Below are positions 6,098-60,660 of a stretch of 64,000 nucleotides of DNA, in pieces (positions within the stretch are counted from its first letter, which is position 1; each line of letters opens with the position of its first letter). The notes beneath the pieces were generated by a model, which was given only the letters and a program-made list of their open reading frames with translations, searched no databases and had not been told where the DNA came from. Origin of the DNA: Octopus sinensis (taxonomy: Eukaryota); contig NC_043014.1 of assembly GCF_006345805.1 (NCBI RefSeq), positions 49,166,001-49,230,000 of the forward strand, in the 5' to 3' direction. Position numbers and translations under genes: made by a program.

Positions 6098-6148
6098 ATG
6101 GCTGAAGAAATGCAGAAAATAACTGGGGAAATGCAGGAAATTCTACTG
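6098..6148 (+). CDS. Putative first coding exon of TPR gene, unit 1 (MAEEMQKITGEMQEILL)
   Basis: ATG in context GGAATGG, 17 open codons, canonical donor CTG|GTGAGT in phase 0, matching the phase-0 acceptor at 14680. Confidence 0.7.
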
Positions 6149-14308: not shown

Positions 14309-14679
14309 CGCGTGTGTGTATGTGTGTGTGAGAGAGTGTTATATCATATTATATTACATAATTTAAGTGATCTACAACAGCCTGTCCATCTTGTTGTTGT
14401 TGTCGTTGTTGATGATGATGATGATGATGATGCATTTATCACTCTGTCAAACACACCTCTTACATTGTTCTCTCACTTATTTACGCTCAGTTTTCTGTGC
14501 GCATATTAAAAACATCGAACATTCGGATCCAAAATGCTCAGCCACTACATCAACCGTATCAGACAAGGAAGGTTTGACATTGTTTCATTAACTAAAAATC
14601 GAAAATTGGAGAATATCTTTTTGTCAATGATAATGTGTGATATCATATTTCATACGCAATCATTTTGTTTTTATTTCAG

Positions 14680-16163
14680 GATGAAGGAAGTAGAAGAGAA
14701 TCGTATAGGGAGAGAATTAAAAGATTTCCAAATGTAATGGAAGAAAGTTTTGAGAAAACCAAAGAAGATTGGTCGTCTTTCTACAAAAAAGTAGAAAATT
14801 CGTTGAATAAAGATATCTCATTTGGTTTAGAAGATGAGATTCGTCAAAAGAACGTCCAAGTATATATTCTTTGGCAGATGAAAGATAAATCCAAAGCTGA
14901 AGAATTAGCCAGTGAAGTTCGAGAAAAGAAGCCAGATAACCTGGTGGCATTAACCAGCCTTGCATTCATTCATTTGGACAATGGAAATATCCCTGAGGTA
15001 AGAAACCTTTTGGATGATCTAAGTAATCTTGAAGAAAGAGAAAATTTCTCGCTGATAGAAGCAGAAGGCAAAAGAAATGTTGCTTATTGTTTAGCTACTA
15101 TATCTTTTGAAGATCATGAAAGAGCTGTCGAACTTTACAAAGAGTCTCTCAACGTTTGTCCGGATGATTATCTGTGTATGTTTTCTATTGCTTTGTTGCA
15201 ATATCGTTGTTTAAGAAAGAACATAGATAAAGAGAAAAGATGTGAAAATATTAAGGAATCAATACAGTACTTAGAGAAAATACAATGTGCTTTTCGACAT
15301 ATAACAAGGCCCTAATGGGAAGAACATTAGCATTGATTGGTTTGTTTCAACTTAGACCTTATAATTTTCATAGTCAAGTAGCTGAAGAGTATTTTCAGAG
15401 AGCTCTTGATATTTCCCCTGATGACCCCTATGTTTTGGAGAAAAGTGCCAATAATTATATACTTTCAAATCAGCATGAAGAAGGAAGAAAATTGCTTGAA
15501 AAAGCAATTGAAATAAAGGCAACACCATATTCTCATCATCAGCTTGGATCAATTTCTCTAAGAATTGAGAACCCTACATATACATATGTCCCAATGAACA
15601 AACAATTCTCAAAAGAAACGAATGAATTTGCGAAATTTTTAAAACATGCTCAAAATATTCCTCCTAGAGAAAGGAAAGAGTTAATCAACAAAGCTGAATA
15701 TCACTTTCAACAAGCTCTTGAACTTTCTTATAGATATTCACCTGCTCTCTATGATATCATTATATTATATATGTCTTTGAAAGAATATGACAATGCCAGG
15801 AAGTATTGTGAAAGATTTAAAGCAGATAACACAAGGCAAGATGTTAATTTTTACATTTCGTTTGGAAAATTATGTTTTAAAGAAGCAGATGTAAAAAATG
15901 ATGAAAAAGAAAAAGATCAATTAAGATGTACAGGAATGGATTGGTTTGTTCTGGCTCTTAAATCTGCTGTAGAATTTCTTCCTTTCAACAAAGACCTGAT
16001 AGAAATTTGGGAGATAAAGGAAATAATACTTGAATTATATGAGTATGGAAATGGAAATGGAAATACTGAATACAAAAAGTTTGTTTTGGAATTCATTCAC
16101 TCAGTAGAAGACCTTGCAAATGATAAAGAGCTCCAAAATATACTTCACAAGAGTGAATTATAA
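14680..16163 (+). pseudogene. IFIT/TTC22-like TPR protein, main exon, copy 1 (frameshifted near 15296-15303)
   Basis: Acceptor TTTTTATTTCAG|GAT. ORFs 14665-15315 and 15285-16163 join into the protein seen in copies 2 and 3. CGACATATAACAAG here vs CGACAACATAATAACAAG in copy 2 is a 4-nt loss (could be an assembly error). Confidence 0.8.
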
Positions 16164-16451
16164 AAGATTAATTGTGTTCATACTTTTCTTATTACTTTCT
16201 TTATTGATAATACTCAACAATATTTTGAAATTCATTGTTATATATCTCACGTTTTCTGAAGTAATACCAAACACGTTTATCTAAAGCTAAATTTTAAAAA
16301 TCATATAAATTTAGACTACTCCTTTCTTTGAAACACAAGATGAATGTAGCAAAGAATTCTACAGGAAATATTACTGCCTTTGTATGGATGTGGCCCTGAA
16401 ACCAACGTTGAAATGACGTCAGAGCATTCAAAGGATGACGTCATAACTAAC

Positions 16452-16789
16452 TTTCATTTTGACATATTTTAACATCCCCAAACAGTGAAGAAGTGGCAGA
16501 AAATATTGGAATGAATCTAGAAATATGTTTTGCTTGAAAGTTCCATTTGATAATCGTGACTACATATTGGGATGATGTAAAACTGGAAACCTTTGCATTA
16601 TACTGAAACATCGTTGGAATATTGGAATTCTATAAGTAACAATCAAAAATTACTAATTTACACAAAAGACACCAAGTAAATCCTTGAAGATTGACAACCT
16701 AAGTAAGGACGACATTTTACTATCAGGAAGCATGAAGCCAGAAATTCCAAAACATTTAAAAAGTTTTCCTCAATTTAAATGGCAATGTG

Positions 16790-16827
<38 letters not shown>

Positions 16828-16960
16828 AGGGGGAGGGGGGAGAGAGAGAGTGAGAGAGAGAGAGGGAGGAGGGAGAGAGAGTGAGAGAGTGAGAGAGAGA
16901 GAAAGAGAGAGAGAGAGAGATGAATAGTTTTAGTTTCCTTTGCAGACTATATTAGTTCGT
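16452..16960 (+). pseudogene. Degenerate TIR domain downstream of TPR copy 1
   Basis: Reconstructed across frameshifts: FHFDIF(L)TSPNSEEVAENIGMNLE..CLKVPFDNRDYILG* ... ILLSGSMKPEIPKHLKSFPQFKW-[(GA)n]-DE*F*FPLQTIL. This resembles TIR box1, box2/BB-loop (LKV..D.RD..G) and box3 (FW..L). Confidence 0.65.
16790..16921. repeat. (GA)n microsatellite inside the TIR relic
   Basis: Direct reading. Also at ~33041-33161 and ~60484-60621. Confidence 0.95.
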
Positions 16961-17400
16961 GTTCATTAGTGTGCAGATCATTTCATGTGTCTGTATTTTG
17001 GCAATGTCCTATCTAAGAGTTACTGCTGCTGTGGTGGTTCTACATCAGATGTAACTTAACATCGGTGACAGGTCTTGATGATAAACTTTAATACTATTTT
17101 ATTATGAAAGCACTAAAGAACTGAATGGCATATTTGGCCCTTGTAAATTGTTTGCCTCTTTTCTGGGACACAAGCAAATAACTGAGGCAGCAAAATCTTT
17201 CAACAGGTTAGCCATATGTGGAAGAGTTGTAACTTTCAGTTAAACGGGCATAAAAGAAATCGATGTAATAAACATCACAGAGAAAATACGTATAAACTTA
17301 TCATCAGATCCTCGTTACTTCCCTGCACTTCCCATAAAAACATGTAAACATTCCACTAACCAAACCACATTAGTTATGTATTAAAACCTTTTAACTTAAA

Positions 17401-17744
17401 GAAGAAAATAATGCGGGAGTGCTATGATAGTAGTAGGATGTTGAATGGTCAAGTGACCTAAAAGTGATCACTTGACAATTTTAACATCCTACTACTATCC
17501 TAACATCCTGCATTCTCTTATTATTCTGTCTCTTTCTTCTTCTTCGTCTTCCTCTCCACCACCTCCTTCCTTACTTTACTACTACTGCTGTTTAGAATAA
17601 CATCTACGAAAATATTATAAACAATACATTCAAAAGAGATATCACAAGGATTCAATCACTACTACCATCCACAACAATCCACTTTCTGGGCACAACACCA
17701 TTTAACATCCTACTACTATCATAGCACTCCCATATTATTTCTTC
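17401..17744. repeat. Inverted-repeat element with internal 74-nt hairpin
   Basis: GAAGAAAATAATGCGGGAGTGCTATGATAGTAGTAGGATGTTGAATGG vs CCATTTAACATCCTACTACTATCATAGCACTCCCATATTATTTCTTC; hairpin at 17426-17499. Copies at ~33642-33985 and ~61102-61445. Confidence 0.8.
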
Positions 17745-18457
17745 CTCCTCCACCTCCTCCTTCTTCTTCTTCTCTGCCAAGAATTCACAATGACCGCGAA
17801 CCCCCAAGAGTAAACAAGAGAGACAGAGACAGGCAGAAACACGGAAAATGTCCCTTGTATTTGAATACTATGCAAACATTCTTTTAAAGTACTTTTCATT
17901 TAATTTTTTCAAAATTTAATTGTTTTCTATACTTACAGTTGAAAAAGTATCAATGACTGAAAACGGTAATGAAATGTTTTTTTCATACAATTATTTTAGC
18001 ATTTTCTACCTTGACTTTTTTCCATATTTATATATATATATACATACATACATTTTATTAACCTTAGCAATTTCACATAAACACACACACACCCACAGAT
18101 TCCTCTCAATGACTTCTAATATCATCAATTCACTGGTCAACATATTTCACTACAGATTGACAAATGTATTTTCAAGTGCATCGATGTGTGTAAACTAGGT
18201 TGCCAAACAGACATGAAACCTGATACCATTGTTCCAACATTTAGCATAAACTCAATGCAGCATCACTTGGTTAACATTACTTACAAACACAAACAAGCCA
18301 TTCCAATTTGTTCTCCTCTTTCTTATAATATCTCGTTCATGTCTAACCCCTGCCATTTTCCCAATAAATAAAGGAAATTTATTTCATTTCATAAACTGAA
18401 AATATCGGAAAGTTTTCATTAAATATAAATTCGAAAATTTGAAAAGAAATTTAATAG

Positions 18458-23761: not shown

Positions 23762-25345
23762 TAGTATATATATATATACTAGCAGTATCGCCCGGCGTTG
23801 CTCGGGTTTGTAAGGGAAATAACTATATAAGCATTTTTAGAGAGTTACTTCCCTTATATAACCCGAGCAAAAATCATTAAAAATGCGGAAAAATGATGGT
23901 AAATTTTTTTTAAATCGTAGACTCATCGTACACGCGCGCTAATACCCAGAAGGGCTCGATATGAATGACGACTATAAGATACCCGCTTTTGGTTAAACTG
24001 CACCGCAAAATGTGGGAGTAGTTAGGAATCTAAATCGGAGGAGACAGAGTCTCACACACAACTTTAATGTTATTTATAAAGATATATATATATATATATA
24101 TATACATGTAAATTTAAATTTAAAATAATAAGAGTGAAAAATTGAATATCAATTTGATTTGTAAGAATTTAAAGCCAGTGGTGTAGCATATAAGACCATA
24201 GCGGATCTTCTTCTAGCAGAATGGATGTCCAGTTACTGCCCTCCCTGTTATATAATAGTTTCAGTATTTAAGTGAAAGTATCTGACATTACAACAGAGAA
24301 ACGTTTTTCTTTCACTTTTGACACGTAATACTGAAATAGTAGAGAAGATACGATATTGCTGTTGGCTCGCCCTAGGCAAGAAGTTATTATTTTTTTTGCT
24401 CATGACACCACATGGACCCTAATCAAGTCTAGCAGAATGTATGTCCAGTTACAGTTACATAATAGTTTCATTTTAATAGTTTCAATATTAAAGTGAAAGT
24501 ATCTGACATTACAATAGAGGAATCTTTTCTGTTTGATGGACGGAATTTTCTAGTTAACTAAACAATTTGAAACTTCGTATACTGGTAGAATGTGTCAAAA
24601 GAAAACATTATCGTAAACAAAATTGAAAACAAAATTGTAATTCGTAACTTAAACGTAGTTTAATTTTACGAATTTTAACTCATGAAATGGCAGCATTCGA
24701 GCTCAAATTATTTACTGCGCACACGTCTTATTCATCCTTGTCTCTTCTGTCTTCTACATGTGCTAGAAATAACAGCTATATCTCATCAATCGATGAATTT
24801 CGTCGCCCAATAAAAATATTAACGATATTTTTTGAATATTTTCTTAATTTTTTTTTTACCATGGTTTTGAAGGGACAGAAACAACAAAAACAAAACAATA
24901 ATATGCCTAAATCGGTCTCGCGCGTGGAGTGTGAGTAGTATTGTAAAAATTTGCGAAATATTTTTTCATAAAAGGATGCCCCAGCTTGTCGGAAGCTGTG
25001 ATATAAATTGGGAAATTGGTACTTAATTTATCGACCCCGAAACGATGAAACATTGACCCCTTCCCTTCTGGTTTATTTACCTTTTGTGCAAATTTGTTGC
25101 GGCAAGTGGCAAAACACGAACGTGTATGTGTGCGTATGTGTGAGTACGTATATGTCCGTTTGTATGTGTGTGTACGCTTATATATTAATTACTATGTGCT
25201 TGTGCAAATGTATATGCATGTGTTTGAGAGAGAGAGAGAGAGAATGTGTGTGTGTGTGTCGTGCGTCTGCTATATTTCTTTATCAATATCGATAACGCAG
25301 CAATGCTGGGATTTCATTGGTTAAAATTCGAAGATGTTGGGATTT

Positions 25346-27475
25346 CATTGGTTAAAATTCGTAAAATTAAACTACGTTTAAGTTACAAATTACAATTTTG
25401 TTTACTATAATGTTTTCTTTTGACACATTCTACCAGTATACGAAGTTTCAAATTGTTTAGTTAACTAGAAAATTCCGTCCATCAAACAGAAAAGATCCCA
25501 ATAGAGAGATGTTTTACTTTCACTTTTGACATGTGATATCGATTCACCAGTATTCGAGTAGGTCAATGCGGAAGTAAAATGTTTTTACAGAAGTCTTTCA
25601 CATTTACTCATTTAGTTGGTGACATTAACGGGCGTTGTTATTATTATCTGAGATTCCCAAAACAGTTTTTATTATTTCTTAATTATTTTCCCTCTTCAAT
25701 CATTGGTTGAAATTCGTAAAATTAAACTACGTTTAAGTTACAAATTACAATTTTGTTTACAATAATGTTTTCTTTTGACACATTCTACCAGTATACGAAG
25801 TTTCAAATTATTTAGTTAACTAGAAAATTCCCTCCACCAAACAGAATAGATCCCAATAGAGAGATGTTTTACTTTCACTTTTGACACGTAATACCGGTTA
25901 AACCAGAATTCGAGTAGGTCAATGCGGAAGTAAAATGTTTTTACAGAAGTCTTTCACATTTACTCATTTAGTTGGTGACATTAACGGGCGTTGTTATTAT
26001 TATCTGAGATTCCCAAAACAGTTTTTATTATTTCTTAATTATTTTCCCTCTTCAATCATTGGTTGAAATTCGTAAAATTAAAGTACGTTTAAGTTACAAA
26101 TTACAATTTTGTTTACAATAATGTTTTCTTTTGACACATTCTACCAGTATATGAAGTTTCAAATTGTTTACTTAACTAGAAAATTCCGTCCACCAAACAG
26201 AAAAGATCCCAATAGAGAGATGTTTTACTTTCACTTTTGACACGTAATACCGGTTAAACCAAAATTCGAGTAGGTCAATGCGGAAGTAAAATGTTTTTAC
26301 AGAAGTCTTTCACATTTACTCATTTAGTTGGTGACATTAACGGGCGTTGTTATTATTATCTGAGATTCCCAAAACAGTTTTTATTATTTCTTAATTATTT
26401 TCCCTCTTCAATCATTGGTTGAAATTCGTAAAATTAAACTACGTTTAAGTTACAAATTACAATTTTGTTTACAATAATGTTTTCTTTTGACACATTCTAC
26501 CAGTATACGAAGTTTCAAACTGTTTAGTTAACTAGAAAATTCCGTCCACCAAACAGAAAAGATCCCAATAGAGAGATGTTTTACTTTCACTTTTGACACG
26601 TAATACCGGTTAAACCAGAAATCGAGTAGGTCAATGCGGAAGTAAAATTTTTTACAGAAGTCTTTCACATTTACTCATTTAGTTGGTGACATTAACGGGC
26701 GTTGTTATTATTATCTGAGATTCCCAAAACAGTTTTTATTATTTCTTAATTATTTTCCCTCTTCAATCATTGGTTGAAATTCGTAAAATTAAACTACGTT
26801 TAAGTTACAAATTACAATTTTGTTTACAATAATGTTTTCTTTTGACACATTCTACCAGTATACGAAGTTTCAAATTGTTTAGTTAACTAGAAAATTCCGT
26901 CCACCAAACAGAAAAGATCCCAATAGAGAGATGTTTTACTTTCACTTTTGACACGTAATACCGGTTAAACCAGAATTCGAGTAGGTCAATGCGGAAGTAA
27001 AATGTTTTTACAGAAGTCTTTCACATTTACTCATTTAGTTGGTGACATTAACGGGCGTTGTTATTATTATCTGAGATTCCCAAAACAGTTTTTATTATTT
27101 CTTAATTATTTTCCCTCTTCAATCATTGGTTGAAATTCGTAAAATTAAACTACGTTTAAGTTACAAATTACAATTTTGTTTACAATAATGTTTTCTTTTG
27201 ACACATTCTACCAGTATACGAAGTTTCAAATTGTTTAGTTAACTAGAAAATTCCGTCCACCAAACAGAAAAGATCCCAATAGAGAGATGTTTTACTTTCA
27301 CTTTTGACATGTGATATCGATTCACCAGTATTCGAGTAGGTCAATGCGGAAGTAAAATGTTTTTACAGAAGTCTTTCACATTTACTCATTTAGTTGGTGA
27401 CATTAACGGGCGTTGATATTATTATCTGAGATTCCCAAAACAGTTTTTATTATTTCTTAATTATTTTACTTCTCC
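25346..27475 (+). repeat. Six tandem copies of a ~356-bp unit (transposon right TIR plus host flank)
   Basis: CATTGGTT(A/G)AAATTCGTAAAATT starts at 25346, 25701, 26057, 26413, 26768 and 27124. Confidence 0.93.
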
Positions 27476-29324
27476 AATCTCGACTGTTTTAGAATTTTAG
27501 AATTTTATCGTAACACAACCATAATAAGAGAAGAATAACCGATCCTAGATTTGGTAGCGTAGCATCATCTAGTTATTAGCTTTCGAAAATGTTGTGGGGA
27601 AAATGAATTCCATTGTTTATTTAAATGGTTTTTCAGTTTCATTAAACACACATACACAAATGTATATACACTCTCACACGTTCTCCAGAGTCTACAGTGG
27701 GGTATACATACTCACGCACGCACACAGTCGAGTAATGGTAAAGGGTGTGCGTGTGCACGCGCACACACGCAAAGTCAGAAACGCACGCACACACTTGATC
27801 GGGCGTGCGCACACAAAAACACACTCTCACACATACACACACAGAATGTCTTCAATCTTATGCATTGTCAACTTGCGAAATACTTCTTACGTAGAATGTT
27901 TCCACAATAGAAAAGTTTCAAATTTTCTAAATAACCGATCCAATTTCTTTTCGAACCTATGATAAATTTGATAACCTGATATTATCCAAGCAATTGCCCA
28001 AGCTACTAGAGGTCAAAAACTCCCTGGGATCTTTTCGGTTTGAACGGCAGTTTTTAACATAATTTCTAGGTAATTAAAAAATTTTAAACTTCGTATACTG
28101 GTAGAATGTGTTTATAAAACATCTTTTTCTCTTGGCTTTATTGAGAAAATTCTATAGTTTGTAAGATATTTGTTGTTTTTTTTCTTCAAATTCTGCAATT
28201 TCAACCAATCAGTGACGTCTATTGAGTTAAAAAGCATTGTGTGCCGTATGAATATGTCCCTCGTTTAGGAAACAGATTGGGTTTATTTACATTTGTAAAG
28301 AAAAAAAAGATACCCTTCAACCACCCCTAACTAACCCTAACCCTAAAACAGATTGAAATGCAATAGATCGATACTAGGGTCATAATTTTGGGTGACAATT
28401 TCATATGACACCGCTAGAAACAACTGCCGTTCAAACCGAAGAGATCCCAAGCTGCTGCTAGTCTTTTGACTGCTACAACAGCAATCAAAAAGATTCATTT
28501 TCTGTCGTGTTTTCGTGAGAAAAAAAAAATGAACATCGAAGGGGAATAAATCTTTTATGGTTTGTGTATGATAGTTAAGGAAAGGTTGCCATGATTAATA
28601 AAACACGGGAGACAATATATACGTGTGTTCCACAGAGTAATTTCCCTTGAAATGAAGTTGTAAAATTCCTTTTCTCTGTATTAAAATCGAGGGCAGCGTT
28701 TATATCTCTAAGTTTTTAGTATAGTGATGCAATTTTATAGAAGACTAGCAGTATAACCCGGCGTTGCTCGGGTTTCTTTCGACCCTTTAGGATTGGAATT
28801 TTTGAAAGCTACAAATTTTGCATTATGTAGCTTGTTATTCTCTGAACATTTTTCTGGTAGAAATACACTGAGAAATGGCGACAGAGCAGTAAAAAAAAAT
28901 CGTCAAAATTAGGGATTTTCATAGAAAAAAAGCACCTTTTTGATGTTAACATGCTCCGATTTGAATTTTTTCTTCTACGGAAGGAAGAGCAAGCCTTCTT
29001 CTATCATACTCTCAATTTTGGTCAACTTGTGCCGCAGGGTCTCAGAGGAGATAGTGTCAGTTGAAGGCTACCAAACCTGCCATACACAGACAACTCCAGC
29101 TTTATATAGAGAGAGATTAATTGTACAGAAATATATAATTTCGCTGCTTTTCGGAGACGCGCGCACACACACATGTATGTATATATGAATATGTATAAAT
29201 GTGTAGGTGAAAGTGTTTGTGTGCGTGTATATGTGTGTGTTATATACTTATAGGCGTAGTTGTGCGGTAAAAAGGTTGTTTCTCAACCCTGTGCCACTGG
29301 GTTCGATTTCAGTTTCCGCCTATA

Positions 29325-30931: not shown

Positions 30932-32413
30932 GATGAAGGAAGTAGAAGAGAATCGTATAGGGAGAGAATTAAAAGATTTCCAAATGTAATGGAAGAAAGT
31001 TTTAAGAAAACCAAAGAAGATTGGTCGTCTTTCTACAAAAAAGTAGAAAATTCGTTGAATAAAGATATCTCATTTGGTTTAGAAGATGAGATTCGTCAAA
31101 AGAACGTCCAAGTATATATTCTTTGGCAGATGAAAGATAAATCCAAAGCTGAAGAATTAGCCAGTGAAGTTCGAGAAAAGAAGCCAGATAACCTGGTGGC
31201 ATTAACCAGCCTTGCATTCATTCATTTGAACAATGGAAATATCCCTGAGGTAAGAAACCTTTTGGATGATCTAAGTAATCTTGAAGAAAGAGAAAATTTC
31301 TCGCTGATAGAAGCAGAAGGCAAAAGAAATGTTGCTTATTGTTTAGCTACTATATCTTTTGAAGATCATGAAAGAGCTGTCGAACTTTACAAAGAGTCTC
31401 TCAACGTTTGTCCGGATGATTATCTGTGTATGTTTTCCATTGCTCTGTTGCAATATCGTTGTTTAAGAAAGAACATAGATAAAGAGAAAAGATGTGAAAA
31501 TATTAAGGAATCAATACAGTACTTAGAGAAAATACAATGTGCTTTTCGACAACATAATAACAAGGCCCTAATGGGAAGAACATTAGCATTGATTGGTTTG
31601 TTTCAACTTAGACCTTATAATTTTCATAGTCAAGTAGCTGAAGAGTATTTTCAGAGAGCTCTTGATATTTCCCCTGATGACCCCTATGTTTTGGAGAAAA
31701 GTGGCAATCATTATATACTTTCAAAGCAGCTTGAAAAAGCAAGAAAAGTGCTTGAAAAAGCAATTAAAAAAAAGGTAACACCATATTCTCATCGTCAGCT
31801 TGGATTACTTTATCTAAGAGATGAGAACCCTACATATACATATGTCCCAATGAACAAACAATTCTCAAAAGAAACGAATGAATTTGCGAAATTTTTAAAA
31901 CCTCCTCAAAATATTCCTGATAGAGAAAGGAATGAGTTAATCACCAAAGCTGAAAATCACTTTCAACAAGCCCTTGAACTTTCTTATAGATATTCACCTG
32001 CTCTCTATGATATCATTATATTATATATGTCTTTGAAAGAATATGACAATGCCAGGAAGTATTGTGAAAGATTTAAAGCAGATAACACAAGGCAAGATGT
32101 TAATTTTTACATTTCGTTTGGAAAATTATGTTTTAAAGAAGCAGATGTAAAAAATGATGAAGAAGAAAAAGATCAATTAAGATGTACAGGAATGGATTGG
32201 TTTGTTCTGGCTCTTAAATCTGCTGTAAAATTTCTTCCTTTCGACAAAGACCTGATAGAAATTTGGGAGATAAAGGAAATAATACTTGAATTATATGAGT
32301 ATGGAAATGGAAATACTGAATACAAAAAATTTGTTTTGGAATTCATTCAGTCAGTAGAAGACCTTGCCAATGACAAAGCGTTCCAAAATATACTTCACAA
32401 GAGTGAATTATAA
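30932..32413 (+). CDS. IFIT/TTC22-like TPR protein, main exon, copy 2 (intact ORF)
   Basis: Acceptor TTTCAG|GAT, 493 codons. TPR-type helices: PDNLVALTSLAFIHL, AVELYKESLNVCPDD, AEEYFQRALDISPDDPYVLEK, SHRQLGLLY, AENHFQQALEL, YISFGKL. Confidence 0.88.
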   Translation, partial: DEGSRRESYRERIKRFPNVMEESFKKTKEDWSSFYKKVENSLNKDISFGLEDEIRQKNVQVYILWQMKDKSKAEELASEVREKKPDNLVALTSLAFIHLNNGNIPEVRNLLDDLSNLEERENFSLIEAEGKRNVAYCLATISFEDHERAVELYKESLNVCPDDYLCMFSIALLQYRCLRKNIDKEKRCENIKESIQYLEKIQCAFRQHNNKALMGRTLALIGLFQLRPYNFHSQVAEEYFQRALDISPDDPYVLEKSGNHYILSKQLEKARKVLEKAIKKKVTPYSHRQLGLLYLRDENPTYTYVPMNKQFSKETNEFAKFLKPPQNIPDRERNELITKAENHFQQALELSYRYSPALYDIIILYMSLKEYDNARKYCERFKADNTRQDVNFYISFGKLCFKEADVKNDEEEKDQLRCTGMDWFVLALKSAVKFLPFDKDLIEIWEIKEIILELYEYGNGNTEYKKFVLEFIQSVEDLANDKAFQNILHKSEL

Positions 32414-32702
32414 AAGATAAATTGTGTTCATACTTTTCTTATTACTTTCTTTATTGATAATACTCAACAATATTTTGAAATTCATTGTTATATATCTCAC
32501 GTTTTCTGAAGTAATACCAAACACGTTTATCTAAAGCTAAATTTTAAAAATCATATAAATTTAGACTACTCCTTTCTTTGAAACACAAGATGAATGTAGC
32601 AAAGAATTCTACAGGAAATATTACTGCCTTTGTAGTGGATGTGGCCCTGAAACCAACGTTGAAATGACGTCAGAGCATTCAAAGGATGACGTCATAACTA
32701 AC

Positions 32703-33200
32703 TTTCATTTTGACATATTTTAACATCCCCAAACAGTGAAGAAGTGGCAGAAAATATTGGAATGAATCTAGAAATATGTTTTTGCTTGAAAGTTCCATTT
32801 GATAATCGTAACTACATATTGGGATGATGTAAAACTGGAAACCTTTGCATTATACTGAAACATCGTTGGAATATTGGAATTCTATAAGTAACAATCAAAA
32901 ATTACTAATTTACACAAAAGACACCAAGTAAATCCTTGAAGATTGACAACCTAAGTAAGGACGACATTTTACTATCAGGAAGCATGAAGCCAGAAATTCC
33001 AAAACATTTAAAAAGTTTTCCTCAATTTAAATGGCAATGTGGAGAGAGAGAGAGAGAGAGAGAGGGAGGGGGGGAGAGAGAGAGAGTGAGAGAGAGAGAG
33101 AGAGGGAGGGGGAGAGAGAGAGTGAGAGAGTGAGAGAGAGAGAAAGAGAGAGAGAGAGAGATGAATAGTTTTAGTTTCCTTTGCAGACTATATTAGTTCG
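32703..33200 (+). pseudogene. Degenerate TIR domain downstream of TPR copy 2
   Basis: In frame: TSPNSEEVAENIGMNLEICFCLKVPFDNRNYILG*; later EIPKHLKSFPQFKW. Confidence 0.65.
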
Positions 33201-42368: not shown

Positions 42369-42419
42369 ATGGCTGAAGAAATGCAGAAAATAACTGGGGA
42401 AATGCAGGAAATTCTACTG
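42369..42419 (+). CDS. Putative first coding exon, unit 3 sub-copy a
   Basis: Identical to 6098-6148, with GTGAGT donor. Confidence 0.6.
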
Positions 42420-42810
42420 GTGAGTATATCAATACATACACTCGCTTGAACAAATGTACACTCTTTACTCTCTCTTTTACTTGTTTCAGTCATTTGACTG
42501 CGGCCATGCTGGAGCACCGCCTTTAATCGAGCAACTCGACCCCGGGACTTATTCTTTTGTAAGCCCAGTACTTATTCTATCGGTCTCTTTTGCCGAACCG
42601 CTAGGTAACGGGGACATCGGTTGTCATGCACACACACTCAAACATATACATATATACGACGAGCTTCTTTCAGTTTCCGTCTACCAAATCACAAGTCTAT
42701 AGTAGAAGACACTTGCCCAAGATGCCATGCAGTGGGACTGAACCCGGAGCCATGTGGTTGGTAAGCATGCTACTTACCACACAGCCACTCCAGCGCCTAT
42801 ATATATATAT

Positions 42811-45325
42811 ATCGTCCCAGATGCGATAACACGTGTTCTGCGTAACTTATCAAGTCTGACAACTTCCGACAGTGTACAAAAGCGTGCTGGACGGTTTCAT
42901 CGTCCAACCCGCATCTTGGACACGTCGGTGGCACTGAAATTCCGTGCCGCGATAACTTCTCGCGAACAGGTAAAGCATTCCTATAACACTGCCAGGCCAG
43001 GGATCTTTGGAAATTATCCAAATACCCCGTCCTGAAAGTCTTTTTAAACAGGTTGGTAAGCTGGTCTTCGTCAAACCCCAGAGCCCCTCCTAGGACGTCG
43101 TCGTTCTTTGCCTCTACCAGCCTGCTATAAAATACTGAGGTGGTGTTTCCGCAGCCGGCCTTGGCCGCCTTGTGGATCAGCGTGAGTGCCTGTCGGCACT
43201 CCTTTTGCCATAAAGTCAGATTCCGTCTTTTGATGCGACCGGGTTTAAAATTCACTAAGGAAGCCGGTCTCGGGAAAAATTCCCCTGCCAGCGGACTCCA
43301 CACCTTATCACCCTCCAGGTGGTGCCAGAGATGCTTCAGCCTCAACGCATGTCTGCGCATCATCAACCAAGGCATTCCTAACCCACCCTTTAACGGTTCC
43401 TGGCAGCAAACGGAGCGCCTCACAAGTGGCTTTCCTCCCTTCCACAAAAAGCGGAAAAGGATTCGCTCCAACTTGCTAAGCCATGAATCGGGGCAAGGGA
43501 CAGCGGTCAGGCGGTAAGTGATTACAGATGAAATGAACATCTGTGCCACCTCCGCCCTTCCTTTCAAGGACAGAGACCTTCCGGACCAGGTCCGTACTAT
43601 GGCCTCCACCTTTTCGTCGCCTCACTCCAATTCCTCTCCGTTTGGGAGTCTGACCCAAACCAAACTCCTAGCAACTTAACAGGACCATCCGTCCAGTGTC
43701 CCACGACACTGGATGATATCGACTTGCTCCTCCAGGTGCCGAGGCGCAAGCCAACCGACTTGTCCTTGTTAACCCTTGCTCCTGCCACCGCCTCGTATCC
43801 TCTGATAGCATCTTCTACACAAGGTAGCTGGGCCTCATTGGACACGATGAGGGTGACGTCATCCGCATAAGCAGTAACCGTCCTCCCACCTCCGATCTCA
43901 TCCGGGTTACTTCCCAGCCACTCCAACTTTCGCAGCAATGGCTCGAGAGCCAACACGTATAAAAGTGGTGACAAGGGGCACCCTTGACGAACTGAACATT
44001 CGATCAAAAACGGTCCGTTAGGTATCCGTTTATCTGGACGGTGGACTTGATGCCGCTATACATAGCGGAGATCCAACCGCGAAATTCAGGGCCCAGTCCA
44101 GCCGCTTCGAGGACCGTCGCCAGGTACTTATGGTCTACCCTATCGAACGCTTTACTTTGGTCTAAATGGACCATTACCCTGCCCTTGCCGGTTAATTTAC
44201 CCACCCTATCTAAGGTGTAGCGTATAAGGTGAAGATTGTCCTGGATCGACCTGCCTGGAATTGCACATGTCTGTGCTTTCCCTAAAAGTTTCTCCACGAC
44301 AATCGTCAACCTTTTTGCCAACACCTTGGCCAAAATCTTTAACTCTACATTAAGTAGAGTTATGGGCCTGTAATTACTAATGTAGACGCCTGCCATTATT
44401 CCCCCGAACAAGTCCGGCATACTTTGGTAAAACTTGTAGGGCAGACCATCCAACCCCGGCGACTTCTCCCCGGCGCATCCAGCCAGTATCCCCTCTATCT
44501 CCGCGGGAGTGATCGCTCCTTCACAGCACTCCACCTCACGCCCCGAGAGCTGCGGTCCGCCGGCTAGGAAGTCCTTTAAGGCCCTCCCCCGTTCCGGCGC
44601 CACGCCACCCCCGAACACGCGGGCGAAATGCTGGTGAAGAAACTTTTGCATCTCCTCCTGTCCATAGATCTTTTGTCCCTGTTCGTCAGTTAAAGACTTG
44701 ATTGAAGCTTTGTTACCTCTCTGACTCTCCACTCGACGGGCCCATCCGGCAACGTTAATACCTTCTCGTTTCCCAGCACGTAGCTTAGCTCTGACTCTGC
44801 AACCTTCGTGTTTGGAGTTAAGGTGACGGTACAATACCGTCCTTGCCGCCATCACTCCGGATGCAGAGCCAGCTTCCATTGCCTCGTTTAGATTCTTAAC
44901 TAAATCGTCCTCTATCCTAGACCTATCTAACCTTAGCTGATTGCTAAATCTAATGGACTCTGAACGAATGGCTCTTTTGAGGGAGTGCCACCATCTATTG
45001 TTAATGATGGTGCCACACAATGCCCTCTGTACTAACACCTTAATCCGGGTACAGAAGTCTTCACAATTCAAAATAGACTTGTTCAGCTTCCAGTACCCGG
45101 GTCCCTGTCTATGGCACTTATCTAATTGCACCCTACAAGTCACAAATTTGTGATCCGTGTAAGGCACAATGTGAAACTGTGGACAACTAAACGTATCCTT
45201 ATCTCTTTTCCTAACGAATATCCTATCTATATACGATCTGTGTGAGCCGTCGTTGTTACTCCACGTCCACTGTGGAACGCTCGGCTCATCCAGTCGATAA
45301 CGGTCCACTAGATCAAAGCTCTCTA
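42811..45325 (-). mobile_element. Tx1/L1-clade LINE, sub-copy 3a (different indel pattern)
   Basis: Same ORF2. Retains VVGHWTDGP and RYRLDEPSVPQWTW segments lost in other copies. Own deletion near 44381 and frameshifts. Confidence 0.9.
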
Positions 45326-46045
45326 TTTGTGTCCTCATCGACAACCATGATTGTCACACGCTGATGAAAGGTAAACACCTTGAAACTCGGGTACGTGTGT
45401 ATCATGTGTTGAAGACGGGGAGGATGACACCCCTTCACAAATACTGAGAGGACACAGATAGTGTGTCTATAGCCAGCTGGAGGAGATACCTTCCTGTGGC
45501 TACAAACTACAGTAGCATCCACCCTTATGGGTTAGCCATATTCAAATGGCAAATATGCATCACGATGTGTTACCGCTACTGTTTATAACTCGCTCTGAGA
45601 TATCTACTTCCAGTCCCCTCCCCCACTCGTGATGTCCTACGTTTTATCTCTTACGAGCCTGCACCAACCCTACCTGTCATCGTTCCTCCTTACCCCAACC
45701 CTCCCCACTGGTGCTTCCCTATACTACCTGCACCCCCAAAAAGCACCATCCGAACGTGGCCGATGCAAGCGCCGCCTTGGCTGGCTTCCGTGCCGCTGGC
45801 ACGTTAAAAGCTGAAACCGATCGTGACCGATGCCGGATCCCCCCTGACACCTGTGCAGGTGGCACGTAAAAAGCACCCACTACACTCGCGGAGTGGTTGG
45901 CGTTAGGAAGGTCATCCAGCCGTAGAAACTCTAACAGATCAGACTGGATCCTGGAGCAGCCCCTGGCTTCCCAGACCCCGGTCAAACCGTCCAACCCGTG
46001 CTAGCGCGGAAAGCGGACGTTAAACGATGACGATGATGATGATGA
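45326..46045 (+). mobile_element. Retroposon 3' part ending in (GAT)n tail (RTE-related LINE/SINE-like)
   Basis: GC-richer unique block ending GGTTGGCGTTAGGAAGG..CATCCAGCCGTAGAAAC...GCGGACGTTAAACGATGACGATGATGATGA. Confidence 0.55.
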
Positions 46046-47987
46046 TATATATATATATATACATGTAAATTTAAATTTAAAATAATAAGAGTCAAAAATT
46101 GAATATCAATTTGATTTGTAAGAATTTAAAACCAGTGGTGTAGCATATAAGACCATAGCGGATCTTCTAGCAGAATGGATGTCCAGTTACTGCCCTCCCT
46201 GTTATATAATAGTTTCAGTATTTAAGTGAAAGTATCTGACATTACAACAGAGAAATGTTTTTCTTTCACTTTTGACACGTAATACTGAAATAGTAGAGAA
46301 GATACGATATTGCTGTTGGCTCGCCCTAGGCAAGAAGTTATTATTTTTTTTTTGGCTCATGACGCTACATGGACCCTAATCAAGTCTAGCAGAATGTATG
46401 TCCAGTTACAGTTCATCCCTGTTACATAATAGTTTCATTTTAATAGTTTCAATATTAAAGTGAAAGTATCTGACATTACAATAGAGGAATCTTTTCTGTT
46501 TGATGGACGGAATTTTCTAGTTAACTAAACAATTTCAAACTTCGTATACTGGTAGAATGTGTCAAAAGAAAACATTATTGTAAACAAAATTGAAAACAAA
46601 ATTGTAATTCGTAACTTAAACGTAGTTTAATTTTACGAATTTTAACTCATGAAATCGCAGCATTCCAGCTCAAATTATTTACTGCGTCTAAAAACTCACA
46701 CACACACGTCTTATTCATCCTTGTCTCTTCTGTCTTCTACATGTGCTAGAAATAACAGCTATATCTCATCAATCGATGAATTTCGTCGCCCAATAAAAAT
46801 ATTAACGATATTTTTTGAATATTTTCTTTACCTTTTTTTACCATGGTTTTGAAGGGCCAGAAACAACAAAAACAAAACAATAATATGCCTAAATCGGTCT
46901 CGCGCGTGGAGTGTGAGTAGTATTGTAAAAATTTGCGAAATATATTTTCATAAAAGGATGCCCCAGCTTGTCGGAAGCTGTGATATAAATTGGGAAAAAA
47001 ATCCTCGACACCTGTGCGTAATTGGTACTTAATTTATCGACCCCGAAACGATGAAACATTGACCCCTTCCCTTCTGGTTTATTTACCTTTTGTGCAAATT
47101 TGTTGCGGCAAGTGGCAAAACACGAACGTGTATGTGTGTGTGTACGCTTATATATTAATTACTATGTGCTTGTGCAAATGTATATGCATGTGTTTGAGAG
47201 AGAGAGAGTGTGTGTGTGTGTGTGTGTCGTGCGTCTGCTATATTTCTTTATCAATATCGATAACGCAGCAATGCTGGGATTTCATTGGTTAAAATTCGAA
47301 GATGTTGGGATTTCATTGGTTAAAATTCGTAAAATTAAACTACGTTTAAGTTACAAATTACAATTTTGTTTACAATAATGTTTTCTTTTGACACATTCTA
47401 CCAGTATACGAAGTTTCAAATTGTTTAGTTAACTAGAAAATTCATCCATCAAACAGAAAAGATCCCAATAGAGAGATGTTTTACTTTCACTTTTGACACG
47501 TAATACCGGTTAAACCAGTATTCGAGTAGGTCAATGCGGAAGTAAAATGTTTTTACAGAAGTCTTTCACTTTTACTCATTTAGTTGGTGACATTAACGGG
47601 CGTTGATATTATTATCTGAGATTCCCAAAACAGTTTTTATTATTTCTTAATTATTTTACTTCTCCAATCTCGACTGTTTTACTTTATTAATCCCTTCACA
47701 ACTTCCAGCATTCCAATAGGACCTGGTTTCCAGAGAGGAACACTTGCACAAAAAGTGACACACTCTCTCTGTATATAATATTCGTTGCCATATATTTACC
47801 CTTCTGAGAAGCTTGGATAGAGATTAGATATAGATATTGACTGTTATTATTCATTATATCATTTCTACAAATTGACCTTTCTTCATTTCACGAATACAAC
47901 AGAAAGCATAATTTCACAAAAAGGAAACGTACAAATTTTGTTGTCCAAAGAAAATTTGCCTTTTTATACACACACAGCTATAAAGGA

Positions 47988-48038
47988 ATGGCTGAAGAAA
48001 TGCAGAAAATAACTGGGGAAATGCAGGAAATTCTACTG
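47988..48038 (+). CDS. Putative first coding exon, unit 3 sub-copy b
   Basis: Identical to 6098-6148, with GTGAGT donor. Confidence 0.6.
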
Positions 48039-48430
48039 GTGAGTATATCAATACATACACTCGCTTGAACAAATGTACACTCTTTACTCTCTCTTTTACT
48101 TGTTTCAGTCATTTGACAGCGGCCATGCTGGAGCACCGCCTTTAATCGAGCAACTCGACCCCGGGACTTATTCTTTTGTAAGCCCAGTACTTATTCCATC
48201 GGTCTTTTTTGCCGACCCGCTAGGTAACGGGGACATCGGTTGTCATGCACACACACTCAAACATATACATATATACGACGAGCTTCTTTCAGTTTCCGTC
48301 TACCAAATCACAAGGCTATAGTAGAAGACACTTGCCCAAGATGCCATGCAGTGGGACTGAACACGGAGCCATGTGGTTGGTAAGCATGCTACTTACCACA
48401 CAGCCACTCCAGCGCCTATATATATATATA

Positions 48431-51400: not shown

Positions 51401-52035
51401 TGAGGTCGTTCAGGAAATAAATTTGTTTCCATTTCGACCCCATTCCACGCACATTTCCGCAACCCAGCTTTGCCATTGTCGGTGAGAGAAAAAATAAACA
51501 AACTTACGGTTGGGACAGGGAGCATGGCAGTTTAAATCTGCCTGCTTCCCCTTCTTCCTCCCTTGTGGTCGTAGCTGCAGGGCTCTTAACCGGCGTTGCC
51601 ATCGGGCTCTGGGTAGGTGTGGTTGCCGGGGTTATAATAAGTTTACCCTCCAGTATTTCCTTTGTTACATCTCTTATAAGATTATTCTTTAAATGTTCTT
51701 GTAGTGTTTTTTCCTTCCACTCGTCTTCCTTTATTTTTGCGAAGCGAGTGGTTGATATTGTGTCTGTAGACTTACTGAATAGTTTAACTTTTGAAAATTT
51801 GAAATATTTGTACACCCTATCGTTCTTCTCGTCAAATGCTATAATCTTATCATTTTTTTTAAACAATTTTTTCAAATCTTGTTTTATGGGGAGGGGCTTG
51901 GCGAACTGTGTTCCAATGAATATAGTGCCGTGGGGGTAGGGCTGGGGAATTTGTTTTGTATGTATGTCTGCGGTGTTTGCTGATTTTTTCTTTGTTTGGG
52001 GAGGGGAGTCCAGGGTGTTATCTTTTTTTCTTTTT
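48431..52035 (-). mobile_element. Tx1/L1-clade LINE, sub-copy 3b (811-aa RT/ZnF ORF)
   Basis: ORF 48416-50851 with YADD and CPRCGLDDETVQHAFVHC; APE ORF 50955-51476; ORF1 fragment 51504-~52030. Confidence 0.92.
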
Positions 52036-53092
52036 CAAATTGTTTAGTTAACTAGAAAATTCCGTCCACCAAACAAAAAAGATCCCAATGGAGAGATGTT
52101 TTACTTTCACTTTTGACATGTGATATCGATTCACCAGTATTCGAGTAGGTCAATGCGGAAGTAAAATGTTTTTACAGAAGTCTTTCACATTTACTCATTT
52201 AGTTGGTGACATTAACGGGCGTTGATATTATTATCTGAGATTCCCAAAACAGTTTTTATTATTTCTTAATTATTTTCCCTCTTCAATCTCGACTATTTTA
52301 CTTTATTAATCCCTTCACAACTTCCAGCATTCCAATAGGACCTGGTTTCCAGAGAGGAACACTTGCACAAAAAGTGACACACTCTCTGTATATAATATTC
52401 GTTGCCATATATTTACCATTCTGAGAAGCTTGGATAGAAATTGGTTACAAATTTAAGTTACAAATTACAATTTTGTTTACAATAATGTTTTCTTTTGACA
52501 CATTCTACCAGTATACGAAGTTTCAAATTGTTTAGTTAACTAGAAAATTCCGTCCATCAAACAAAAAAGATCCCAATAGAGAGATGTTTTACTTTCACTT
52601 TTGACATGTGATATCGATTCACCAGTATTCGAGTAGGTCAATGCGGAAGTAAAATGTTTTTACAGAAGTCTTTCACATTTACTCATTTAGTTGGTGACAT
52701 TAACGGGCGTTGATATTATTATCTGAGATTCCCAAAACAGTTTTTATTATTTCTTAATTATTTTACTTCTCCAATCTCGACTGTTTTATTTTATTAATCC
52801 CTTCACAACTTCCAGCATTCCAATAGGACCTGGTTTCCAGAGAGGAACACTTGCACAAAAAGTGACACACTCTCTGTATATAATATTCGTTGCCATATAT
52901 TTACCCTTCTGAGAAGCTTGGATAGAGATTGGATATAGATATTGACTGTTATTATTCATTATATCATTTCTACAAATTGACCTTTCTTCATTTCACGAAT
53001 ACAACAGAAGGCATAATTTTACAAAAAGAAAACGTACAAATTTTGTTGTCCAAAGAAAATTTGCCTTTTTATACACACACAGCTATAAAGGA

Positions 53093-53143
53093 ATGGCTGA
53101 AGAAATGCAGAAAATAACTGGGAAAATGCAGGAAATTCTACAG
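53093..53143 (+). CDS. Putative first coding exon, unit 3 sub-copy c (MAEEMQKITGKMQEILQ)
   Basis: Variant copy with a stronger donor CAG|GTGAGT. It is the nearest start exon to TPR copy 3. Confidence 0.65.
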
Positions 53144-58374: not shown

Positions 58375-59856
58375 GATGAAGGAAGTAGAAGAGAATCGTA
58401 TAGGGAGAGAATTAAAAGATTTCCAAATGTAATGGAAGAAAGTTTTGAGAAAACCAAAGAAGTTTGGTCGTCTCTCTACAAAAAAGTAGAAAATTCGTTG
58501 AATGATGATATCTTATTTGGTTTAGAAGATGAGATTCGTCAAAAGAACGTCCTAGTATATATTCTGTGGCAGATGAACGATAAATTTTCAGCTGAAAAAT
58601 TAGCCAATGAAGTTCGAGAAAAGAAGCCAGATAACCTGGTGGCATTAACCAACCTTGCATTCATTCATTTGTACGATGGAAATATCCCTGAGGTAAGAAA
58701 CCTTTTGGATAATCTAAGCAAGCTTGAAGAAAGAGAAAATTTCTCGCTGATAGAAGCAGAAGGCAAAAGAAATGTTGCTTATTGTTTAGCTACTATATCT
58801 TTTGAAGATCATGAAAGAGCTGTCGAACTTTACAAAGAGTCTCTCAACGTTTGTCCAGACGATTATCTGTGTATGTTTTCTATTGCTTTGTTGCAATATC
58901 GTTGTTTAAGAAAGAACATAGATAAAGAGAAAAGATGTGAAAATATTAAGGAATCAATACAGTACTTAGAGAAAATACGATGTGCTTTTCCACGCCATAT
59001 TGATAAGGGCCTAATGGGAAGAACATTAGCATTGATTGGTTTGTTTCAACTTAGTCCTTATAATTTTCATAGTCAACCAGCTAAAAAGTATTTTCAGAGA
59101 GCTCTTCATATTTCCCCTGATGACCGCTATGTTTTGGAGAAAAGTGCCTATCATTATATACGTTCAAATCAGCTTGAACAAGGAAGAAAATTGCTTGAAA
59201 AAGCAATTGAAATAAAAGCAACATCATATTCTCATCATCGGCTTGGATTACTTTATCTAAGAATGGATACACCAAAATATACATATGTCCCAATGAACAA
59301 ACAATTCTCAAAAGAAACGAATGTATTTGCGAAAGTTTTAAAACATGCTCAAAGTATTCCTCATAGAGAAAGGAATGAGTTAATCAACAAAGCTGAATAT
59401 CACTTTCAACAAGCTCTTGAACTTTCTCATGAATGTTCAGCTACTCTCTATGATATCATTTTATTATATATGTCTTTGAAAGAATATGACAATGCCAGGA
59501 AGTATTGTGAAAGATTTAAAGCAGATAACAAAATGCAAGATGTTAATTTTAACATTTTGTTTGGAAAATTATGTTTTAAAGAAGCAGATGTAAAAAATGA
59601 TGAAGAAGAAAAAGATCAATTAAGATGTACAGGAATGGATTGGTTTGTTCTGGCTCTTAAATCTGCTGTAAAATTTCTTCCTTTCGACAAAGACCTGATA
59701 GAAATTTGGGAGATAAAGGAAATAATACTTGATTTATATGAGTATGGAAATGGAAATACTGAATACAAAAAATTTGTTTTGGAATTCATTCAGTCAGTAG
59801 AAGACCTTGCCAATGACAAAGCGTTCCAAAATATACTTCACAAGAGTGAATTATAA
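58375..59856 (+). CDS. IFIT/TTC22-like TPR protein, main exon, copy 3 (intact ORF)
   Basis: Acceptor TTTCAG|GAT, 493 codons, same TPR architecture, about 60 aa different from copy 2 (manual count). Confidence 0.88.
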   Translation, partial: DEGSRRESYRERIKRFPNVMEESFEKTKEVWSSLYKKVENSLNDDILFGLEDEIRQKNVLVYILWQMNDKFSAEKLANEVREKKPDNLVALTNLAFIHLYDGNIPEVRNLLDNLSKLEERENFSLIEAEGKRNVAYCLATISFEDHERAVELYKESLNVCPDDYLCMFSIALLQYRCLRKNIDKEKRCENIKESIQYLEKIRCAFPRHIDKGLMGRTLALIGLFQLSPYNFHSQPAKKYFQRALHISPDDRYVLEKSAYHYIRSNQLEQGRKLLEKAIEIKATSYSHHRLGLLYLRMDTPKYTYVPMNKQFSKETNVFAKVLKHAQSIPHRERNELINKAEYHFQQALELSHECSATLYDIILLYMSLKEYDNARKYCERFKADNKMQDVNFNILFGKLCFKEADVKNDEEEKDQLRCTGMDWFVLALKSAVKFLPFDKDLIEIWEIKEIILDLYEYGNGNTEYKKFVLEFIQSVEDLANDKAFQNILHKSEL

Positions 59857-60145
59857 AAGATAAATTGTGTTCATACTTTTCTTATTACTTTCTTTATTGA
59901 TAATACTCAACAATATTTTGAAATTCATTGTTATATATCTCACGTTTTCTGAAGTAATACCAAACACGTTTATCTAAAGCTAAATTTTAAAAATCATATA
60001 AATTTAGACTACTCCTTTCTTTGAAACACAAGATGAATGTAGCAAAGAATTCTACAGGAAATATTACTGCCTTTGTAATGGATGTGGCCCTGAAACCAAC
60101 GTTGAAATGACGTCAGAGCATTCAAAGGATGACGTCATAACTAAC

Positions 60146-60482
60146 TTTCATTTTGACATATCTTAACATCCCCAAACAGTGAAGAAGTGGCAGAAAATAT
60201 TGGAATGAATCTAGAGATATACTTTTGCTTGAAAGTTCCATTTGATAATCGTGACTACATATTGGGATGATGTAAAACTGGAAACCTTTGCATTATACTG
60301 AAACATCGTTGGAATATTGGAATTCTATAAGTAACAACAAAAAATTACTAATTTACACAAAAGACACCAAGTAAATCCTTGAAGATTGACAACCTAAATA
60401 AGGACGATATTTTACTATCAGGAAGCATGAAGCCAGAAATTCCAAAACATTTAAAAAGTTTTCCTCAATTTAAATGGCAATG

Positions 60483-60538
<56 letters not shown>

Positions 60539-60660
60539 AGGGGGAGAGAGAGTGAGAAGAGAGAGAGAGAGAGGAGGGGGAGAGAGAGAGTGAGAGAGAG
60601 AGAAAGAGAGAGAGAGAGAGATGAATAGTTTTAGTTTCCTTTGCAGACTATATTAGTTCG
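60146..60660 (+). pseudogene. Degenerate TIR domain downstream of TPR copy 3
   Basis: In frame: LTSPNSEEVAENIGMNLEIYFCLKVPFDNRDYILG*; later EIPKHLKSFPQFKW. Confidence 0.65.

Follow-up and report, generated by a model that had tools for sequence, protein, structure and literature searches.

Loss of a domain through a premature stop codon is a known process, and the vertebrate IFIT proteins function without any TIR domain. According to passages of PMC3688568, IFITs are confined to jawed vertebrates, candidates from acorn worm and lancelet having been rejected, and their genes, which stand in tandem arrays, consist of two exons of which the first is short. Part of a review (PMC13197388) describes K151 and R187 of IFIT1, and the corresponding K150 and R186 of IFIT5, as critical for RNA binding. 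Among molluscs, ‘TIR-TPR’ proteins of the Pacific oyster are named in a figure legend of PMC4346834. They resemble the proteins discussed below in that they combine TIR and TPR modules, but the order is TIR-TPR, the passages make no link to IFITs or to TIR loss, and the proteins appear there as a name only.

The window analysed here, a stretch of 64,000 nucleotides of Octopus sinensis, consists of AT-rich animal DNA with LINE fragments and microsatellites, in which three IFIT-like TPR genes (units 1–3) are arranged in tandem. The initial annotation of this DNA had correctly recognized a TPR array but missed its IFIT-like nature. Human IFIT1 and IFIT5 are the closest solved relatives of the TPR part, being the best match in both sequence and fold. 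The position of R187/R186 is conserved in octopus, the octopus genes share the short first exon and the tandem arrangement described for IFITs in part of PMC3688568, and their products are of similar length after the loss of the TIR domain. They differ in the low identity (approx. 18–20%), in an exon 1 of 17 codons instead of the ATG alone, in the presence of Thr at the K151 position in the short forms, and in their descent from a TIR-bearing parent.

In a phmmer search of the PDB with the unit 3 protein, IFIT5 was the best match (E 6e-7), and five of the six sequence matches were IFIT5 or IFIT1, colinear over approximately 300 residues. At the level of the structural model (see below), Foldseek ranks 1–7 were occupied by IFIT5/IFIT1, and IFIT1 reached a Z of 20.2 (VIA), above generic TPRs. 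Arg193, found in 44 of 45 rows, aligns with IFIT5 R186/IFIT1 R187. At position 157, which aligns with IFIT5 K150/IFIT1 K151, a basic residue (Arg or Lys) is present in 39 of 45 rows; within the AYCLAT motif this position is Thr in all four short forms aligned and Arg in the long forms, so that Thr at position 157 accompanies TIR loss. In the TPR part, acidic residues outnumber basic ones (K+R, 71–77; D+E, 79–85), which speaks against RNA binding.

With a probability of roughly 0.75, the DNA that follows these genes is the broken tail of a still-intact longer gene, made of a linker and a predicted TIR domain and cut by a stop after KSEL in one duplicate, which expanded into TPR-only IFIT-like genes whose products are likely stand-alone binding effectors. 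Here the parent form occurs next to its product and the lost domain can still be read, so that a switch from receptor to effector (or decoy) is open to direct testing.

The array, its dead tails and the intact paralogues

Each unit contains one large TPR exon (14680–16163, 30932–32413 and 58375–59856). The features of the locus are the following, P0014 being an intact O. sinensis paralogue.

6098..6148, + strand: coding exon 1 of unit 1, 17 codons and then GT, upstream of unit 1
14680..16163, + strand: exon 2 of unit 1, IFIT-like TPR coding sequence, ending HKSEL-TAA
16161..16163, + strand: truncating stop TAA of unit 1, at the place of Ser518 of intact P0014 in alignment A1
16164..16457, + strand: dead helical linker of unit 1, approx. 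P0014 518–607, with three shared frameshifts and one private; helices in the model
16458..16789, + strand: dead core of the predicted TIR domain of unit 1, betaA to betaE, P0014 608–723
16790..16920, + strand: (GA)n expansion within the old reading frame, betaE/alphaE interval
16920..16955, + strand: remnant of the last helix and ancestral stop (TAG, 16953–16955)
30932..32413, + strand: exon 2 of unit 2, open frame (P0001)
32414..33196, + strand: dead linker and predicted TIR tail of unit 2
53093..53143, + strand: exon 1 of unit 3, matching the start of XP_029647836.1 (P0002)
58375..59856, + strand: exon 2 of unit 3, intact (P0002, 510 aa including exon 1)
59857..60656, + strand: dead linker and predicted TIR tail of unit 3

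The unit 2 protein is P0001 (100% identity), and unit 3 matches the O. sinensis protein XP_029647836.1, which is named ‘IFIT5-like’. Copies of the 17-codon exon 1 are present in the window at 6098, 42369, 47988 and 53093, and none was found between units 1 and 2 in this assembly. Six tandem copies of a 356-base unit lie at 25345–27479, and at the corresponding place in unit 1 an exon 1 and a LINE are flanked by copies of the same repeat. Exon 1 of unit 2 was possibly deleted through recombination between the 356-base repeats. The stretch 42369–53143 holds three exon-1 copies upstream of unit 3, with duplicated LINE (RT/endonuclease) fragments after each of them, and the extra copies may be alternative first exons or nested duplications. 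An enriched ISRE-like pattern (37 against 7 expected) was rejected, as it lies mostly in a dispersed repeat and nowhere adjoins exon 1. Exon 2 of unit 1 carries a private 4-base deletion at approximately 15300 (15300–15301), which splits it into two ORFs and is either a real frameshift, making this a pseudogene copy, or an assembly error; contigs covering the place in runs X1 and X5 hold four extra bases compared with unit 1.

Intact long paralogues of 736–744 aa are found in three Octopus species. In P0012 (O. bimaculoides, 736 aa) and P0014 (O. sinensis, 741 aa) the extra residues, approximately 230, match the sequence that follows the stop in each of the three units. Three loci of O. sinensis are represented in the P0014 cluster, together with three O. 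vulgaris proteins, of which one ends at residue 600.

Conversely, the DNA 3' of the stop matches the C-terminal 220 or so residues of the intact paralogues in every unit. Frameshift-aware alignment of the tails with P0014 gave 109, 108 and 111 identities over 204 residues for units 1, 2 and 3, respectively, with a tail-only score of 361 compared with 31.2±4.4 (maximum, 44) for 15 shuffles, and tblastn of the intact paralogue P0012 yielded an E of 1e-16 on 16246–16785. Thus, the tail is a pseudogenized coding region, homologous to a domain that is intact in the paralogues and lost here by a premature stop, as the initial annotation had proposed. Its description as a hidden TIR domain applies to the distal portion, where a TIR is predicted, but the first approximately 290 bases are a dead helical linker of about 90 residues.

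Several details of that first reading are also confirmed. The frame after HKSEL (TAA, 16161–16163) stays open, for 31 more codons, which are mostly not in the ancestral frame; FDIF begins at 16458, with TSPNSEEVAENIGMNLE, CLKVPFDNRDYILG and EIPKHLKSFPQFKW after it in other frames; and the (GA)n tract is found at 16790–16920. The lesions are, as stated, mostly common to the three units, with 10 of the 12 in the unit 1 tail being shared (six frameshifts and four stops) and the remaining two being −1 indels private to unit 1, the lesion coordinates within the first 100 or so tail bases being approximate. In the unit 1 core a 4-base deletion in betaA, a stop after the BB loop, a frameshift with a four-codon deletion at betaC/alphaC, three stops and a frameshift before the IP motif are observed. 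Other readings have to be corrected. The ‘ILL’ stretch is off-frame, the homologous one being GRHFTIRKHE (GQIFMIRNHE in P0014). The sequence DE*F*FPLQTIL, which had been taken for Box 3, is in the wrong frame and scores 13 as opposed to 34 for the homologous frame. The latter reads MNSFSFLCRLY* after the GA tract (16920–16955), to be compared with VNIFNFLCSLS*, the last eleven residues and stop of P0014. Since the intact gene has no FW, no Trp has been replaced by TAG, contrary to what had been supposed.

Four public runs, from other individuals or species and of an RNA nature that is guessed, were compared with 14400–17400; their contigs demonstrate presence rather than absence and carry no level, strand, 3' end or condition labels. 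The KSEL stop and the shared indels showed no difference in all four runs. Both unit-1-only tail deletions were absent from all four and therefore may be assembly errors. The late stops at 16692 and 16704 are sense codons in contigs of three runs, which have instead another stop at 16695, pointing to a stepwise decay of the tail. Intact-type contigs, found in the same runs as short-type ones, retain the 4 bases that betaA has lost, and a segment of 218 bases in the window is 234 bases long in them. In three of the four runs, loose contig ends at 14679 carry the sequence of the exon 1 end, indicating spliced RNA, and contigs of these runs extend across the stop into the tail, which fits a 3' UTR. 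The dead tail is probably nothing more than a 3' UTR.

Fold and motifs of the lost domain

The domain lost from the window genes is very probably a TIR domain, as judged from the predicted fold of its intact counterpart. Two AlphaFold models of P0014 were obtained, both of the full-length protein, within which the domain is seen as five strands and flanking helices at 608–737, with pLDDT values mostly of 80–92. Comparison of residues 605–740 with known structures (VIA) yielded the IL-18Rb TIR (Z 14.1; rmsd 2.2; 127 aligned), TRIF (14.1), SARM1 (13.6) and MyD88 (13.4), with the TIR of oyster TIR-STING also matched within the 13.4–14.1 range. The second model, made after removing the four most canonical-TIR-like rows, gave Z values of 15.1 for TRIF, 14.7 for IL-18Rb and 14.3 for SARM1 (range, 14.2–15.1). 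The assignment to TIR made by the initial annotation is therefore upheld by the fold predicted in the two models (Z 14–15). In the Foldseek search with the model the best 50 matches were filled by TPR structures.

Sequence profiles give a more graded picture. No Pfam TIR/TIR_2 match was obtained for the tail, with stops read as X, in any of the nine forward frames (three per unit), and no Pfam TIR match in the intact paralogues P0012 and P0014 (none of two). A refutation of the proposal had been said beforehand to need both the lack of a TIR profile match and the lack of a homologue joining this TPR to a TIR: the former came true with Pfam and the latter did not, the intact long paralogues being such homologues with a TIR-like domain of predicted fold. 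The family profile matches the TLR15 TIR (E 7e-9), and profile A4, of the family without the canonical rows, found no TIR among its best 60 PDB matches. On a profile of 54 domains, from which octopus and the four most canonical rows had been left out, P0014 scored 45 bits as opposed to 5.8 at most in 200 shuffles. The dead domains, read through with X at the breaks, scored 7.0–10.6 bits on the octopus-free family profile, with guided-shuffle controls reaching at most 1.2 bits (n=30); unguided single tail frames scored up to 4.3 bits, no better than shuffles (5.8).

As to the TIR boxes, all three of which had been assigned, Box 1-like YDIYI on betaA and Box 2-like RDYILG in the loop after betaB can be recognized in the long paralogue by the definitions given in part of PMC7075850, and D609 and D643 are 82% and 57% conserved, respectively. 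The assignment of Box 3 does not stand: FW is absent at alphaE, where the intact paralogues have IFNF. Many TIR groups are without Box 3, according to a passage of PMC7075850. The column of the catalytic Glu in alphaC is occupied by His681 in octopus in two of three alignment modes and by a gap in the third, and Glu is found there in 1 of 60 family domains; Glu683 lies two residues from His681, in a column assigned by sequence alignment and not by site superposition. On this basis a scaffolding TIR is suggested, and the octopus domain is a divergent and probably non-enzymatic one.

With the adaptor-type TIRs (TRIF, MyD88, TIRAP, IL-18R/IL-1RAcP) P0014 605–740 shares the predicted fold (Z 13–15) and the two motifs resembling Box 1 and Box 2. 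It differs from them in the low identity (13–20%), the missing Pfam match and Box-3 FW, and its location behind an IFIT-like clamp, and it is dead in the window genes. The predicted fold is also that of the enzymatic TIRs (SARM1, TIR-STING, plant TIRs; Z 11–14.5), to which the sensor plus TIR layout is common, but they differ from the octopus domain with its His681 at the Glu column.

Age of the truncation and divergence of the short forms

Long and short forms coexist in three species, and those of O. sinensis and O. vulgaris occur on contigs of equal length. H[K/E]SEL is the terminus of 9 of the 13 proteins listed, including ones from O. vulgaris and O. bimaculoides. In a quick maximum-likelihood tree (36 rows, first 430 residues, invertebrate rows only) six short forms make up one clade (SH-aLRT 99), sister to seven long forms, and the linker-bearing P0031 branches outside both. 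Since the short forms of three species share their end position and group in a single clade, the loss is older than the array. The TIR was lost before the array expanded, as had been suggested, and the truncation also predates the divergence between O. bimaculoides and O. vulgaris/sinensis. The simplest reading is one duplication and one loss before the Octopus species split, and it can be held with high confidence that a duplicate lost linker and TIR by a stop and that its tail then decayed.

For the timing, lesions that the units of the array have in common count for less, because the 3' flanks may have been homogenized by conversion. The flank at 16164–17920 differs from those of units 2 and 3 by 1–2 positions per 1000, compared with up to 5.6% for the coding exon, which suggests polar gene conversion or unequal crossing-over. 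Two O. vulgaris proteins, P0016 (CAI9738063.1) and P0031 (CAI9737285.1), keep the helical linker and end just ahead of the TIR; they may be independent TIR losses or gene-model artefacts. The bivalve and gastropod matches P0033, P0035 and P0038 are also without the TIR-like domain.

The proposal that the TPR part kept diversifying after the loss is well founded, in that the exon diverged faster than the dead tail (p ≤ 2e-4), with 38, 80 and 83 differences between units at approximately 1480 sites as opposed to 2, 8 and 10 at approximately 628; the upstream intron differs at 14–29 of approximately 970. The whole-exon dN/dS values of 1.28–1.41 are not significantly different from 1. In codons 200–400, a window chosen post hoc, they rise to 2.4–6.1, with p values of 0.03–0.04 for the two pairs tested. 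Non-synonymous divergence exceeds that of the intron between units 2 and 3 (p 0.0013), and of the 31 sites at which seven short proteins show at least three different residues, 23 fall in 201–400. The tail of the long forms is nearly invariant. These values suggest selection on the TPR exon.

Proposed function, competing accounts and the wider family

Because the sister genes keep a tail that is predicted as TIR, the window genes likely moved from signalling receptors to stand-alone IFIT-like proteins. The product of the long gene would be a cytosolic receptor with an IFIT-like clamp for the ligand. As the long form has Arg at both sites equivalent to K151 and R187 of IFIT1, this ligand would likely be RNA 5' ends. 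Its TIR may signal via TIR–TIR assembly and not by NAD cleavage, because of the His at the catalytic Glu column. One duplicate would then have shed linker and TIR via a single stop, with the tail decaying as likely UTR. The targets of the short form would probably be shifted and diversifying, and it would act by sequestering them, given that the R187 equivalent is kept, the K151 position holds Thr and the central TPRs are hypervariable. That the TPR-only product became a stand-alone binding effector, expanded and diversified, is put forward tentatively, at somewhat short of an even chance; the initial annotation had named sensors, effectors and decoys without choosing among them.

Among the other accounts, it is unlikely, if less so than for those that follow, that the short proteins are decoys or dominant-negative forms, which would compete for the ligand, pair with and damp the long TPR-TIR form, or soak up pathogen antagonists. 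The coexistence of long and short forms in three species and of both contig types in the same runs would agree with such a role, as would the absence of the K151-equivalent Arg from the short forms, the clustering of their variable sites within 201–400, the region of the central TPRs (23 of 31), and the scarce variation of the long-form tail. The many diverging copies, however, exceed the needs of a simple brake, and vertebrate IFITs are well known to act with no TIR at all.

By analogy with the plant sensor/helper NLR pair, the short proteins could also be diversified sensors that signal in trans via the conserved long form. Hypervariable short forms are indeed found beside conserved long ones, and IFITs hetero-oligomerise, the IFIT1–IFIT3 complex 6c6k being among the Foldseek matches. 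Such an arrangement is distinctly improbable, as the long forms, with a full TPR clamp and both basic residues, can probably sense alone.

More doubtful still is that the short genes are merely decaying duplicates, with TIR loss as the first step of pseudogenization and the TPR differences reflecting drift or conversion patches. The 4-base deletion of unit 1, the missing exon 1 of unit 2, the whole-exon dN/dS not significantly different from 1 and the several O. vulgaris models that are short or internally deleted would be expected of such genes. However, the exon is still open for approximately 490 codons in each of three species, against ten or more lesions gained by the tail, spliced exon 1–exon 2 junctions are present, and non-synonymous divergence exceeds that of the intron (units 2 and 3, p 0.0013).

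There is very little likelihood that the lost domain is another flavodoxin-like alpha/beta domain: the missing Pfam TIR match, Box-3 FW and catalytic Glu, and a match to 2'-deoxyribosyltransferase (Z 10.8), would fit it, but the best matches for 605–740 are all TIR or SEFIR structures with both models, relatives match Pfam TIR_2 (P0067, P0081), and an Atlas feature search gives TIR clusters at 0.89–0.90, to be taken as a lead only. Equally remote is continued use of the tail by alternative splicing, as in the RefSeq model XP_029647277.1 (P0003), where the TPR exon is joined to the dead linker and 50 residues are read in the old frame, an AG at 16313–16314 preceding the equivalent stretch: no such joint is among those listed for the four runs over 14400–17400, and P0003 stops at the first TIR strand, so that no TIR is restored.

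Going back to the preferred account, of a TPR-TIR parent and its truncated duplicate, a profile search returned 147 further representatives as distant matches. On iteration from the octopus domain, a TIR-like C-terminal domain was found to be kept in 57 of these 147, which points to an invertebrate IFIT-TIR family, that is, IFIT-like clamps with a divergent TIR, missed by Pfam. The Pfam scan took in 68 of the 147 representatives, with at least two of the 68 above cut-off for TIR_2 among the matches listed, P0067 (sea urchin) and P0081 (amphioxus), and a match below cut-off in P0065 (hemichordate). P0067, the sole clearly canonical TIR, is weakly tied to the family (8.2 bits; long branch in the tree). 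A word-index search with P0014 505–741 found two octopus clusters only, and none was found in a search for shorter proteins. The literature covered, which included few subscription papers, contained no description of this locus or of a fusion between IFIT and TIR. Some of these proteins may already be included in the ecTIR-DC families reported by Gerdol et al. 2017 and in the TTC22 family.

It is conceivable, with the odds rather against it, that overlooked IFIT-TIR receptors, combining an IFIT-type RNA clamp with a divergent TIR, exist in molluscs, amphioxus, hemichordates and perhaps sea urchins, and that loss of the TIR from such a receptor gave rise to the vertebrate IFITs. Octopus would have repeated this step independently, with the lost domain left as a fossil in the 3' UTR and a diversifying TPR-only effector array of its own. 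If orthology holds, the family would offer a source from which IFITs arose, and molluscs would have a candidate cytosolic RNA receptor, as opposed to the limit to jawed vertebrates set in passages of PMC3688568. In P0032 of Batillaria (1941 aa), two complete TPR plus TIR-like units are fused in tandem.
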